Source of the DNA: Gemmatimonadales bacterium
GTDB taxonomy: Bacteria; Gemmatimonadota; Gemmatimonadetes; Gemmatimonadales; GWC2-71-9
Assembly: GCA_038321865.1 (NCBI GenBank)
Contig: JBBQFH010000031.1
Location: 1-37,074 of the forward strand
DNA: 37,074 nt
Reading direction: 5' to 3'
This document shows, one piece after another, positions 15,376 to 20,240 of this stretch. A program made the position numbers and the translations under genes. Under the pieces are notes generated by a model. It searched no databases. It had not been told where the DNA came from and was given only the letters and a program-made list of their open reading frames with translations. How positions within the stretch are numbered: position 1 is the stretch's first letter; every line of letters starts with the position of its first letter.

Positions 15376-17414
15376 GCCGGCACGCCCAGTTCGTGGAAGA
15401 CGAAGCTCCAGCTGTCGGTGAGCTCGTCGAGCAGCTTCGACAGCGGCTTGCCCGCGCCGTGTCCCGCCTTTGCCTCGAGCCGGAGCAGGATCGGCCGGTC
15501 CGATCCCGTCGCCGCCTGGAGGCGGGCCGCCATCTTCCGCGCGTGCATCGGATCCACTCGCGTATCCGACTCCGCCGTGGCCAGCAGCACCGCCGGGTAC
15601 TTCGCTCCGGCCCGCACATGATGATAGGGCGAGTAGGCGCGGAGCCAGCCGAACTGCTCTGCGTCCTCCGCCGAACCGTATTCCGGAATCCACAGGCGTG
15701 CGATCAGAAACAGATGGTACCGGAGCATGTCGAGCAGCGGCACCTGGATGATCACCGCGTGGAACAGATCGGGGCGCTGAGTGAGCAGCGCACCGGTGAG
15801 CAGCCCGCCATTCGACCCGCCCGCCACGGCGAGGCGCTCGGGCCTGGTGTAGCCCTCCGCGATCAGCCACTCTGCGGCGGCGATGCAGTCGTCGAACGTG
15901 TTCTGCTTGGCGCCCAGCATGCCGCCCTGGTGCCAGGTCTCCCCGTACTCGCCGCCGCCCCGGAGGTTGGGGACCGCGAGCACGCCGCCGTGCTCCAGCC
16001 AGAGCAGGAGCGAGCGCGAGAAGCCCGGCGTCATGCTGATGTTGAAGCCGCCGTACCCCGTGAGGTAGACCGGATTGTTCCCGTCGAGCACGATCCCGCT
16101 CGGCTGCACGACGAACATCGTCACCGGGGTCCCGTCGCGCGATGCGTAGGTCACCTGCCGCACCTCGAATCGCTCCGGCGCCACGTCCGCCTCCACGCGG
16201 CGCCAGAGGGTCTGCTTCCCCGACGGAAGCGCGACCCGATAAATGCTCGGCGGGACCGCATAGGATGAGAAGCCGTACAGGAGCTCGTCGCCGTCGGGTT
16301 CGGAGCCGACCCCGAAGACGCTGCCGATGGCGGGAAGCGGAATGTCCCGAGCGGTGCCGCCGTCGAGATCGGCCAGCACCAGCCGCGACGTCGCGCGCTC
16401 GAGGTAGTTGAGCACCAGCGCGGTCCGGGTGACGGAGACGCCTTCGAGAACCGCGTCGGTGCGGGGCGGCACCAGCGTGCGCCAGCCCGCGCGGCCGGGC
16501 TGCTCCGGATCTGTGACATACAGGCCGTGCGTCGGCGCGTCGAAGTTGCTGCGGATGTACAATCGCCCGCCCACCACCTGCCCCTCGAAGAACGCGGGTT
16601 CATCGCGGGCGACGGCGACGAGCGGACCGTCCGCCGCCAGGTCGCGGACATACAAGTCGGTCTCGTCGAAGGTGCGGGATACGACGATGAGCATCCAGCG
16701 GCCGTCCGAGGAGACGCTTACGCCGGGCCAGTGCTCCTTGGCCTCCGGCCGGAACACCAGCGGATCCACGGAGGGATCGTCGCCCAGGCGGTGGAAGTAA
16801 ATGGTGCGGCCATACTGCTCGTCGCCATCGGGGACGGTGCCGGCAGCGGGATAGCGCGTATAGTAGAAGCCGCTGGAGTCGGGCAGCCAGGCGAGATCGG
16901 CGGCGCGGGTGTCGGGAATGCGGTCGGAAAGGAGTTCGAGCGTATCCAGATCGAGGATTTGGAGCACGCTTCGTTCACTTCCGTCCTCCGACAGGCCGTA
17001 GGCCAGCAGCCGGCCATCCTCGCTCGGATAGTACCAGTCGAGTGCCGTGGTGCCATCGGGGTTGATGACGTTGGGATCGATCGCGACACGGTCGGCGCCG
17101 CCCAGGCCATCGCGAACGTAGAGGACCGGCTGGTTCTGGGTGCCTTCGCGAAGCAGATAGAGGTACCGGCCGCGCGCCGGTGTGGGTACGCCGAGGCTGC
17201 CGATGGCGAGCAGCTCCTCGAGCCGCCGACGGATGCGGGGCCTGGCGTCGATCGCCGCGAAGAAAGCCTCGGTCTCCGCGTTCTGCTCCGCCGTCCATTG
17301 CGCCACGGCGGGATCGTCCGAATCCTCCAGCCAGCGGTAGGGATCGGCCACCGCTTCGCCATGGAGGATGTCCACCGCGTCCGACACCAGCGTCCCGCGG
17401 CGGTCAGTCGCCAA
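15372..17414 (-). CDS. Prolyl oligopeptidase (S9A)
   Basis: DPYRWLED, GYGGFN, NLRGGGEYG, GGSNGGLL (catalytic Ser), DTRV, GHGAGK. TTG start overlaps the pfkA stop. Confidence 0.94.
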   Translation of the reverse strand: MATDRRGTLVSDAVDILHGEAVADPYRWLEDSDDPAVAQWTAEQNAETEAFFAAIDARPRIRRRLEELLAIGSLGVPTPARGRYLYLLREGTQNQPVLYVRDGLGGADRVAIDPNVINPDGTTALDWYYPSEDGRLLAYGLSEDGSERSVLQILDLDTLELLSDRIPDTRAADLAWLPDSSGFYYTRYPAAGTVPDGDEQYGRTIYFHRLGDDPSVDPLVFRPEAKEHWPGVSVSSDGRWMLIVVSRTFDETDLYVRDLAADGPLVAVARDEPAFFEGQVVGGRLYIRSNFDAPTHGLYVTDPEQPGRAGWRTLVPPRTDAVLEGVSVTRTALVLNYLERATSRLVLADLDGGTARDIPLPAIGSVFGVGSEPDGDELLYGFSSYAVPPSIYRVALPSGKQTLWRRVEADVAPERFEVRQVTYASRDGTPVTMFVVQPSGIVLDGNNPVYLTGYGGFNISMTPGFSRSLLLWLEHGGVLAVPNLRGGGEYGETWHQGGMLGAKQNTFDDCIAAAEWLIAEGYTRPERLAVAGGSNGGLLTGALLTQRPDLFHAVIIQVPLLDMLRYHLFLIARLWIPEYGSAEDAEQFGWLRAYSPYHHVRAGAKYPAVLLATAESDTRVDPMHARKMAARLQAATGSDRPILLRLEAKAGHGAGKPLSKLLDELTDSWSFVFHELGVPA

Positions 17415-18483
17415 GGCTGATTCCGAGCTCCCGCGCGGTCATGATCGTATCGGAATCGAGCGGGACGTTCTTGGTGCGGCCGATGACGTCGGCGATCGGC
17501 ACCCGGGTGATCGTCGGCCCGTTGAGGCCGACCATGCACCCGAAGGCGCCGTCGGCGATCGCCCGGACGGCCGCCGCCCCGAAGCGGAGCGCGAGCAGGC
17601 GATCGTAGGTGGTGGGCGAGCCGCCGCGCTGCAGATGGCCGAGGACCAGCGTCCGGACCTCCTTGCCGGTCACCTCGCCGATCGCGCGAGCCACCTGGCT
17701 GCCGATCCCGCCGAGCCGGTCCACCGTCCCCATGCCGCGGCGCTCGACCAGCGCGACCGTGCCGTCCTTCGGCACCGCGCCCTCCGCCACGACCACGATA
17801 CTGAAGCGGCGGCCCGCCGCCTCCCGCTCGAGAATCTTCGCGCTCACGCGCGCCAGATCGAACGGAATCTCCGGAATCAGGATGACGTCGGCACTTCCTG
17901 AGATGCCGCTGTTGAGCGCGATCCAGCCGGCGTGACGTCCCATGAGCTCGACGACCATCACCCGGTCGTGGCTCTCGGCGGTGGAGTGCAGGCGGTCGAG
18001 CGCTTCGGTCGCGGTGCCGACGGCGGTGTCGAATCCGAATGTGCGCTGAGTACCGAACACGTCGTTGTCGATCGTCTTGGGCACGCAGACGACGGGCATG
18101 CCCTTGAGCGACAGCTGGTGGGCAATCTGCAGGCTGCCATCACCGCCGATCGAGACCAGCGCGTCGAAACCGGACGCGTGGAAGGCACCGACCAGGTCGT
18201 CCGACCGGTCGCACTCGTACTCCGCGCCCGACTCGTCGCGCCGGACGTAGCGGAACGGATTGCCGCGGTTGGTCGTCCCGAGTATGGTGCCGCCCAGGTG
18301 GGTAATCCCGCGCACCTCGGCCGGCCCGAGCGGGACGACCCCATCGAAGCTGAGCAGCCCTTCGAATCCGCGCTGGATTCCGTACGAGCGCCAGCCACGC
18401 TGGTGGGCCGAGAGCACCACGGCCCGGATGACGGCATTGAGACCCGGCGCGTCGCCGCCGCCGGTGGAGATCGCGATTCGCGT
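17404..18483 (-). CDS. pfkA: 6-phosphofructokinase (PfkA family, GGDG/PKTIDND type), apparent ACG start
   Basis: The conserved N-terminus RIAISTGGGDAPGLNAVIRA lies upstream of the track start (18420). The codon at the Met position is ACG (18483-18481), 6 nt after GAGGAG; in-frame TGA at 18507-18505. GGTILGT, GGDG, PKTIDND, MGR and LGHLQRGG motifs. Confidence 0.92.
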   Translation of the reverse strand, partial: TRIAISTGGGDAPGLNAVIRAVVLSAHQRGWRSYGIQRGFEGLLSFDGVVPLGPAEVRGITHLGGTILGTTNRGNPFRYVRRDESGAEYECDRSDDLVGAFHASGFDALVSIGGDGSLQIAHQLSLKGMPVVCVPKTIDNDVFGTQRTFGFDTAVGTATEALDRLHSTAESHDRVMVVELMGRHAGWIALNSGISGSADVILIPEIPFDLARVSAKILEREAAGRRFSIVVVAEGAVPKDGTVALVERRGMGTVDRLGGIGSQVARAIGEVTGKEVRTLVLGHLQRGGSPTTYDRLLALRFGAAAVRAIADGAFGCMVGLNGPTITRVPIADVIGRTKNVPLDSDTIMTARELGISLGD

Positions 18484-18484
18484 G

Positions 18485-18715
18485 TTACGCTCCTCTTTCC
18501 CTGATCAATCTGACGATTTCGCCGGGGGCCGCATGACGCCCGGCGGTTTTTTTTGAAAAGATGGGCACGTCGTCCACCGCCACATCGAACCGGCCGCCCG
18601 AGGCCGGAATCAGCTGGACGGTGACGCCCGGAAAAGCCTGCTCCAGCTCAGCCGCCAGACCGGCGGCTCGGGGCTGGTAGTTTCAAACGACGCAGTATTG
18701 TACGCGCACCCGCAT
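18485..18715 (-). CDS. Rdx family (SelW/SelT/SelH-like) selenoprotein, CxxU, 76 aa
   Basis: Manual translation MRVRVQYCVV(U)NYQPRAAGLAAELEQAFPGVTVQLIPASGGRFDVAVDDVPIFSKKTAGRHAAPGEIVRLIRERGA*. In-frame TGA at codon 11 (18685-18683); GG.F.V and IFSK Rdx motifs; GAGG SD upstream. Confidence 0.9.
18643..18677 (-). promoter_or_regulatory. Bacterial SECIS element
   Basis: mRNA CCAGC-CCCG-AGCCGCC-GGUCU-GGCGGCU-GA-GCUGG. Two-part stem; the G-led apical loop GGUCU begins 21 nt after the UGA and resembles the E. coli fdhF SECIS apex. Confidence 0.8.
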
Positions 18716-18830
18716 GATGACCGCCTCGCTCGTGTGAATGCCGCTCTCGATGCGAATCGTACTGCGCCCGGTTGGTGCTGCCAAGTGCGCGCCTTGTCAG
18801 CCCGCCGTGCGCCACGTATCTATTGAAACC

Positions 18831-20240
18831 ATGCGAACCTGCCTGCAACGAAGCCTGCTCGTGCTCGGCGCCGTGGCCGCCCTCGCGACCCGGGGCGAAG
18901 CCCAGCGCCGCCGCTACCTGCTCGAGGCGAGCGCGGGCGGCACCTACATGTCGTTCGACAACGCGACCAACCTCCATTCCGCCTTCGGCGGGGTCGGCCG
19001 GCTGGGGTTGTGGCTCCCCCTGCACCTGTCGGTCGAAGGCGAAGCGCTGCTCACGAGCCCCCGCACGACGATCAACGGTTTCGCCTGGACCGCGCGGTTC
19101 TTCACCGGTTCGCTTCTGGCCAACATCCCGGTCGGCAACACCAGCTCGTTCTTTCTCCGGGCCGGCTACGGCACCTCCAAGTACGACTCCGACCGCTGCT
19201 CGGCCGGAATCTCGTTCGTGGACATCGGCCCCTGCGGAAGCACGCCGGTGCTGATCGGGGGGCTCGGCTTTCGCGCCGGCATTTCACAGACGCTGATGCT
19301 CCGGATGGAGGGCGCGGCCAACCACAGCACATCGAAGAGTCTCACGAATTTCGGCGGCTCGGTCGGGCTCAGCGTGATGCTCGGCAGCAAGTCGGCCACG
19401 GACGTGGATCACGACGGCGTCTACGATACCGACGACCGGTGCCCCAACACGCCGCGCGGCGTGCTCACGGATCGCCGTGGCTGCCCGACCGACACCGATC
19501 ACGACGGCGTCCCCGACGGGCTGGATCGCTGCCCGACGTCGGCGCCGGGCACGGTGGTCGATACAGCGGGCTGCCCCCGTGATACCGACCGCGACGGCGT
19601 GGCCGATGGCCTCGACCGCTGCCCGAATACGCCGGCGGGTGCCGCTGTGGATGCTGCCGGCTGCTCGATCGACAGCGACAAGGATGGTGTCGCCGACGGC
19701 CTCGACCGCTGCCCCGATACCCCCGCCGGCGCGAGCGTCGATCAGCTCGGATGCCCGGGTGACGAGGATGGCGACGGCGTGTTCGACGGGCTCGACCGCT
19801 GCCCGCACACGCCGCAGGGACAGACCGTCAACTCGCTCGGTTGCCCGCCGTCGGGCGGCGCGTCCGGCGGTCCGACCACCGCCCCTCTGGAAACGACCAT
19901 CCTCCACGGCGTGGTCTTCGCCCCCGGCAGCGCGCGCCTGGGCCCGGAGTCGCAGCCCGTGCTCGACTCGCTCGCCCGAACATTGCTGGACAATCCCGCG
20001 CTGATGGTGGAGATCGGTGGGCACACCGACAACACCGGCAACGCGGCCGCCAACCTGAATATTTCGCGGCTGCGGGCGGAAGCGGTGCGCAACTATCTGA
20101 TCGCGCGAAAGGTGCCGTTCACGCGGCTGGTGGCGAAGGGCTACGGATCCGCCATGCCGCTGTCGACCGCGAACACCGACGCGGCACGCTCGGCGAACCG
20201 ACGCGTCGAGATCAAGCCGCTGCCGACCACTCCGCCATGA
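18831..20240 (+). CDS. OmpA family protein: N-terminal OMP beta-barrel, thrombospondin type 3 repeats, C-terminal peptidoglycan-binding domain
   Basis: Signal peptide from ATG 18831; DxDxDGVxDxxDRCP repeats; GHTD..G....N..IS..RA..V, GYG...P, NRRVEI. Confidence 0.92.
   Translation: MRTCLQRSLLVLGAVAALATRGEAQRRRYLLEASAGGTYMSFDNATNLHSAFGGVGRLGLWLPLHLSVEGEALLTSPRTTINGFAWTARFFTGSLLANIPVGNTSSFFLRAGYGTSKYDSDRCSAGISFVDIGPCGSTPVLIGGLGFRAGISQTLMLRMEGAANHSTSKSLTNFGGSVGLSVMLGSKSATDVDHDGVYDTDDRCPNTPRGVLTDRRGCPTDTDHDGVPDGLDRCPTSAPGTVVDTAGCPRDTDRDGVADGLDRCPNTPAGAAVDAAGCSIDSDKDGVADGLDRCPDTPAGASVDQLGCPGDEDGDGVFDGLDRCPHTPQGQTVNSLGCPPSGGASGGPTTAPLETTILHGVVFAPGSARLGPESQPVLDSLARTLLDNPALMVEIGGHTDNTGNAAANLNISRLRAEAVRNYLIARKVPFTRLVAKGYGSAMPLSTANTDAARSANRRVEIKPLPTTPP
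19401..19847 (+). repeat. Five coding repeats of about 87 bp (29 aa), TSP type 3 Ca-binding
   Basis: D.D.DGV.D..DRCP.TP.G..VD..GC repeated five times. Confidence 0.85.

Follow-up and report, generated by a model that had tools for sequence, protein, structure and literature searches.

We analysed a stretch of 37,074 nucleotides (the window) from the assembly of a Gemmatimonadales bacterium (G000; 3.40 Mb, 89.85% complete, 68.7% GC) and identified on its minus strand a short gene of the Rdx/SelW type (rdx), with pfkA downstream on the same strand and a divergent gene with OmpA-domain, TSP3 and beta-barrel sequence upstream (Table 1). The rdx frame runs from an ATG at 18715 to a TAA at 18487-18485 and comprises 77 codons (76 residues and the stop), of which the sole internal TGA is codon 11, as a preliminary description of this DNA had it; that description did not give the strand, which is minus. 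A plus-strand reading of 18485-18715 was rejected, its product not being Rdx-like. The TGA lies, as had been described, at the second redox residue of the motif YCVV-U-NY, which is the fourth position of CxxU, and the Rdx-like motifs quoted earlier for the sequence 3' of it are all present. The list of open reading frames does not contain the gene, which had indeed been missed.

Table 1. Positions of the features discussed (coordinates of the window, except for the two peroxiredoxin-like genes, which are given by assembly and contig)
Feature	Position	Strand	Remarks
Rdx/SelW-like selenoprotein gene (rdx)	18485..18715	minus	76 aa, CVVU motif, TAA stop
In-frame TGA, codon 11, putative selenocysteine	18683..18685	minus	TGA in 101/101 copies from the order
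SECIS upper stem-loop, 7 bp, loop GGUCU at 18661-18657	18650..18668	minus	covariation, G in loop
Shine-Dalgarno-like GAGGAG in the 3' end of rdx	18490..18495	minus	6 nt before the pfkA start
pfkA, ATP-dependent 6-phosphofructokinase	17404..18483	minus	only PFK match in the assembly
Sigma-70-like promoter match TTGGCA-17-TACGAT	18756..18784	minus	41 nt upstream of the ATG
Peroxiredoxin-like (AhpC-TSA) genes L101/L104, TGA at TxxU (TKGU, TPGU)	G000:C10:29639; G000:C27:39358	plus	

A TGC or TGT in place of the TGA, which in raw reads would have refuted the preliminary description by its own account, is not seen in run X1, possibly the source sample, as assembled independently: the Logan contig of this run, an assembled sequence rather than raw reads, has 0 differences from the window over 18200-18779, and the TGA is therefore not confined to the assembly studied here. 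A contig from run X2 of another study also spans this stretch, with 48 differences (~7% divergence), and among the 40 of these that were listed both the TGA and the ACG with which pfkA probably starts are untouched. The divergent neighbour (18832-20240, plus strand) encodes an outer-membrane beta-barrel together with TSP3 repeats and a domain of the OmpA type, and has a weak match, far below the cut-off, to a model of the outer-membrane-exchange protein TraB. It is not conserved beside rdx, being matched at only 1 of 49 other loci under low-complexity filtering; the apparent matches obtained without the filter were rejected as low-complexity noise.

With the TGA translated as U, the protein matches the Pfam family Rdx (PF10262) end to end (positions 1-74 of 74, 78.4 bits against a cut-off of 22.6, E = 4.8 × 10−22), and the similarity on which the preliminary description had staked its case thus persists 3' of the TGA. 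Scores also exceed the curated cut-offs for TIGR02174 (CXXU_selWTH; 64.4 vs. 34.2) and NF041051 (SelTWH_Campy; 91.2 vs. 88). Both redox positions of C8-V-V-U11 are invariant in 32 aligned sequences. An AF2 model built with this 32-sequence alignment (pLDDT 94.9) has the elements E2-8, H14-27, E32-38, E43-47, E50-54, H55-58 and H66-73, in thioredoxin-like order, and sequence comparison finds 7 relatives in the PDB (E values from 8 × 10−10 to 1 × 10−4), namely Atu0228 (2FA8), SAV_2001 (3DEX), 2OBK, 2OJL, 2P0G, 2OKA and human C17orf37 (2LJK). These are proteins of 103-117 residues with the same predicted thioredoxin-like topology, and in the best 2 of the 7 alignments (2FA8 and 3DEX) Cys stands at the U position, giving CxxC. 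The model and the solved relatives predict a thioredoxin-like fold, and fold and motif together suggest that CxxU is likely a thiol-disulfide redox switch acting on protein targets; our literature search found no substrate for any bacterial SelW-like protein.

Comparison with relatives shows that the TGA is conserved. In the same order, all 101 rdx copies cut from the genomes carry TGA and none carries Cys, which answers the earlier question of whether homologues have Cys or Sec at position 11. The gene was found in 56 of 61 relatives, with TGA in every copy, and in 78 of 121 genomes drawn across the phylum, each with 1 TGA; distant homologues in Acidobacteriota and Desulfobacterota likewise have TGA (29 of 29 loci). 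Matches flagged with 2 TGA in three genomes (G042, G054 and G048) were discarded as candidates for a second Sec, the second TGA being the terminal stop.

We further compared the distribution of rdx to that of selA. Use of Sec is normal for this order and seems to be so across the phylum, with selA in 71 of 88 and 97 of 121 genomes, respectively. In the phylum sample, 77 of the 78 rdx genomes have selA, and of the 24 genomes that lack selA a single one has rdx. Of the 88 genomes of the order (G000 excluded), 68 have both Rdx and selA and 16 lack both, selA occurs alone in 3 and Rdx alone in 1; the losses are spread over several genera, kin not being independent. No Cys-type Rdx from a Sec-less relative occurs among the 78 phylum matches; in lineages without selA, rdx was lost and not changed to a Cys form, and pfkA was kept. 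The exception is G040 (95% complete, ~240 contigs), which has the TGA gene, no selA above the cut-off and no tRNA-Sec match, and G035 (91% complete) is in the same state; both assemblies are probably incomplete. In the window's own assembly, selA, selB and selD score above their cut-offs and there is a single tRNA-Sec, whose anticodon is UCA; this is the full set that the preliminary description had suggested looking for. The SelD of this assembly is the Cys form, and no tRNA other than tRNA-Sec was found with a UCA anticodon.

These data bear on the reading of the TGA as a true stop, in a pseudogene or through a sequencing error, or as Trp or Cys, which we consider extremely improbable. Such a reading would accord with the default meaning of TGA and with two relatives that have damaged copies, but all 101 copies have this codon, the protein downstream of it is conserved while synonymous sites are free outside the SECIS, and the only tRNA with a UCA anticodon is that for Sec. 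Because TGA is also a normal stop of rdx in many relatives, it is not reassigned genome-wide. One of the damaged copies (L078; G036:C1, near 1104087-1104242) encodes a 51-residue Rdx with an internal in-frame deletion of the core strands, for which either recent decay or a misassembly could account. The copy still has the -4 overlap with pfkA, the SECIS stem and CVVU, and its genome is 99% complete and has selA and tRNA-Sec. In the other (L174; G107:C3), the C-terminus is frameshifted after about residue 50.

The hairpin with a GGUCU apex that had been noted close 3' of the UGA is present (AGCCGCC-GGUCU-GGCGGCU), and its loop begins 22 nt past the UGA, where the distance rule of bSECISearch is 16-37 nt. 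Folding z-scores were set aside as proof of a SECIS, as they depend on the window folded (−3.49 for 46 nt, −0.88 for 61 nt and −0.65 for 101 nt, significant for 46 nt only). That the hairpin is more than chance is shown by covariation, not by energy. Across 56 distinct sequences, 95.9% of the stem cells are paired, and 37 cells, in three pairs, have double changes; slid registers were 17-61% paired, and 0 of 500 shuffles reached as high a value, a control that ignores relatedness. To allow for relatedness, we compared every one of the 20,100 possible column pairs across 99 genes from the order (the 101 minus the 2 damaged copies): pair 18-36, with both members at third codon positions, had the highest corrected mutual information (0.91), the next value being 0.42. 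In codons 18-20, third positions do not vary among genes that keep the commonest residue, whereas elsewhere third positions vary. The loop is GGUCU in 61 of 95 cases, AGUUU in 22 and AGUCU in 9, and the second loop base is G in all 95. At stem pair 22-32, 14 of the 95 have A opposite C, a mismatch.

Taken together, the family match, the sel genes, the conservation of the TGA, the covariation of the hairpin and the joint loss of rdx and selA support the earlier proposal that UGA is recoded as selenocysteine here, and we are highly confident that this is a gene of the Rdx/SelW family whose UGA is very likely read as Sec and whose CxxU likely serves as a thiol-disulfide redox switch. Insertion of Sec at codon 11 is very likely by analogy with the established SelA/SelB/SelC/SelD pathway, as outlined in the main text of two surveys (PMC1794560, PMC9312934): SelB with the UCA-anticodon Sec-tRNA would bind the G-containing loop at its distance of 22 nt from the UGA, and Sec would be inserted. 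Cys8 and Sec11, placed at the predicted turn between strand 1 and helix 1, would then cycle between a selenolate/thiol and a selenenylsulfide form.

The start of pfkA is probably an ACG (18483-18481), 1 nt past the rdx stop. This codon aligns with the ATG, GTG, TTG or CTG starts of homologues, and between it and an in-frame TGA 7 codons upstream there is no ATG, GTG or TTG. A start at the first GTG (18420) would cost pfkA 21 residues, including the N-terminal GGGDAPG motif; with these residues, the TIGR02483 score rises from 387.6 to 429.3 and the match begins at position 1. Among 95 rdx-linked pfkA genes, this is the sole ACG start, and CTG occurs in 2. The ACG letters are identical in the X1 contig. 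A literature search on natural ACG starts in bacteria gave nothing useful. For the GAGGAG in the 3' end of rdx, we calculated a duplex energy of −8.1 kcal/mol with an anti-Shine-Dalgarno motif.

Across the order, pfkA lies at most 100 nt downstream of rdx in 95 of 101 copies, and 6 copies have no adjoining pfkA. The gap is 5 nt or less in 66 of the 95, with overlap in 37, and is longer, up to 100 nt, in 29. The pfkA start is ATG in 26 of the 66 tight cases vs. 25 of the 29 loose cases, and ACG and CTG occur in tight cases only; the Fisher p of 0.0005 for starts, obtained from the first 56 loci, is inflated by kinship. These counts omit 17 pfkA genes from other orders because 8 of them carry N-terminal extensions. 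In a control set from the same order, pfkA genes without an upstream rdx have a non-ATG start in 7 of 15 cases, and we therefore rejected weak pfkA starts as a feature specific to rdx. In other orders, rdx and pfkA lie apart in 6 of 8 Rdx-positive genomes, and the other 2 have no pfkA match.

Upstream of rdx, the pattern TTG-N-TAnnnT, to which the promoter match in Table 1 conforms, was found in 35 of 99 homologues, compared to a mean of 1.44 (maximum 5) in shuffled sequences, and no terminator-like site was found between rdx and pfkA. In 8 family members compared, TTGGC(A)-17-TACGAT is nearly letter-identical, and it may represent a consensus of housekeeping promoters in this lineage. The end of pfkA is overlapped by a prolyl oligopeptidase (S9) gene (17414-15372, minus strand), and is possibly a third cistron. 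Of 49 other loci, many of them too short to tell, 12 have an S9 gene after pfkA.

Besides encoding a redox protein, rdx could control pfkA, such that PfkA output falls with selenium; this proposal is compatible with the selenoprotein reading, and we regard it as unlikely. If Sec-tRNA were scarce, ribosomes would halt at codon 11 and miss the coupled and often weak pfkA start, and polarity of transcription may follow. Consistent with such control are the tight spacing, the rarity of ATG in tight compared to loose cases, the conserved promoter-like site before rdx with no terminator-like site after it, and the truncated Rdx of G036, which in this one genome keeps CVVU with its UGA, the stem and the overlap. 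Precedent comes from Treponema primitia, in which a UGA with a SECIS is reported to make downstream expression selenium-dependent within fdhF(Sec) (PMC3892789), as the proposed control would; that polarity, however, is reported to act inside the selenoprotein gene itself, whereas the control proposed here would be of a downstream non-selenoprotein enzyme, and the same paper reports none in E. coli fdhF. Several further observations argue the other way: weak starts are as described not specific to the pairing, overlapping gene pairs are described as common and generic (PMC6728339), the Shine-Dalgarno-like sequence before pfkA would permit de novo initiation, 29 of the 95 gaps are longer than 5 nt, the two genes are not adjacent in other orders, and the related genomes that supply the counts are not independent. 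Nor is there an obvious benefit in making the sole PFK dependent on a trace element. The stronger form of this proposal, in which Gemmatimonadales gate their only phosphofructokinase by a selenoprotein leader and PfkA comes mainly from ribosomes that, having placed Sec at codon 11, begin anew at a weak start codon (ACG in this genome and, in relatives, CTG, TTG or GTG), is in our estimate decidedly unlikely. Were it true, a UGA/SECIS element would control a downstream enzyme that contains no selenium, entry into glycolysis would track selenium supply, and a trace element would be linked through readthrough to central carbon flux.

A second proposal, that Rdx is a dedicated redox partner of PfkA that reduces a regulatory cysteine, we consider very improbable. 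The adjacency of the two genes is conserved in the order and 51 of 56 aligned PFKs have a cysteine at position 214, but the PfkA encoded here has Ser at this position, all 3 Sec-less genomes aligned keep Cys 214, and no further Cys column exceeds 15 of 56. The conserved cysteine thus does not track with rdx, and we rejected it as the target of Rdx. Moreover, pfkA outlives rdx in the selA-less lineages, which have no Cys-type substitute, and 6 of 101 rdx copies have no adjoining pfkA. We prefer the reading in which the pairing is, most simply, an inherited operon arrangement and not an enzyme-substrate pair: rdx would likely head an mRNA that it shares with pfkA and the S9 peptidase gene, and pfkA would likely be translated by ordinary termination-reinitiation.

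Bacterial SelW-like CxxU selenoproteins have been known since 2005-06, and the annotation problem that they pose has long been known too. In a survey of the Sargasso Sea they are reported as the most abundant selenoprotein family, with 48 genes (PMC1088965); few or no Cys homologues are described in Sec-using organisms (PMC1794560), and a 2022 review tabulates the family with Pfam Rdx (PMC9312934). The protein described here resembles them in its length, full-length profile match, CxxU, in-frame UGA and 3' SECIS with an apical G, and differs from those catalogued in its host lineage and in its conserved place before pfkA. This fixed place just upstream of a phosphofructokinase gene is the only unusual feature. 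The string 'Gemmatimon' is absent from the main text of the surveys PMC1794560 and PMC9312934. Our search of paper listings, few of them from subscription journals, found no description of selenoproteins of Gemmatimonadota and none of a bacterial SelW-like gene paired with phosphofructokinase; survey supplements may list such genes. A close parallel is selW (CJnc60) of Campylobacter jejuni, which likewise encodes about 80 residues and was missed by annotation, and for which UGA readthrough is reported from Ribo-seq and MS/proteomics (PMC11955535); that gene is reported to be carried by a small transcript which was at first mistaken for an sRNA, whereas rdx here precedes and abuts pfkA. The present data correct the annotation of a routinely missed rdx gene and of a mis-called pfkA start, and the locus gives a clean, covariation-supported set of SECIS elements; if it yielded a substrate, this would be the first for bacterial SelW-like proteins.

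A heuristic scan for in-frame TGA codons in the window's own genome gave at least 3 selenoprotein candidates, including rdx. Of the 11 AhpC-TSA matches, 2 have one in-frame TGA at TxxU, with a hairpin 3' of each (Table 1), and these two genes likely encode further selenoproteins. Two Molybdop_Fe4S4 matches in the same genome have no internal TGA. The AhpC-TSA candidate on contig C10 has an N-terminus that resembles a signal peptide.
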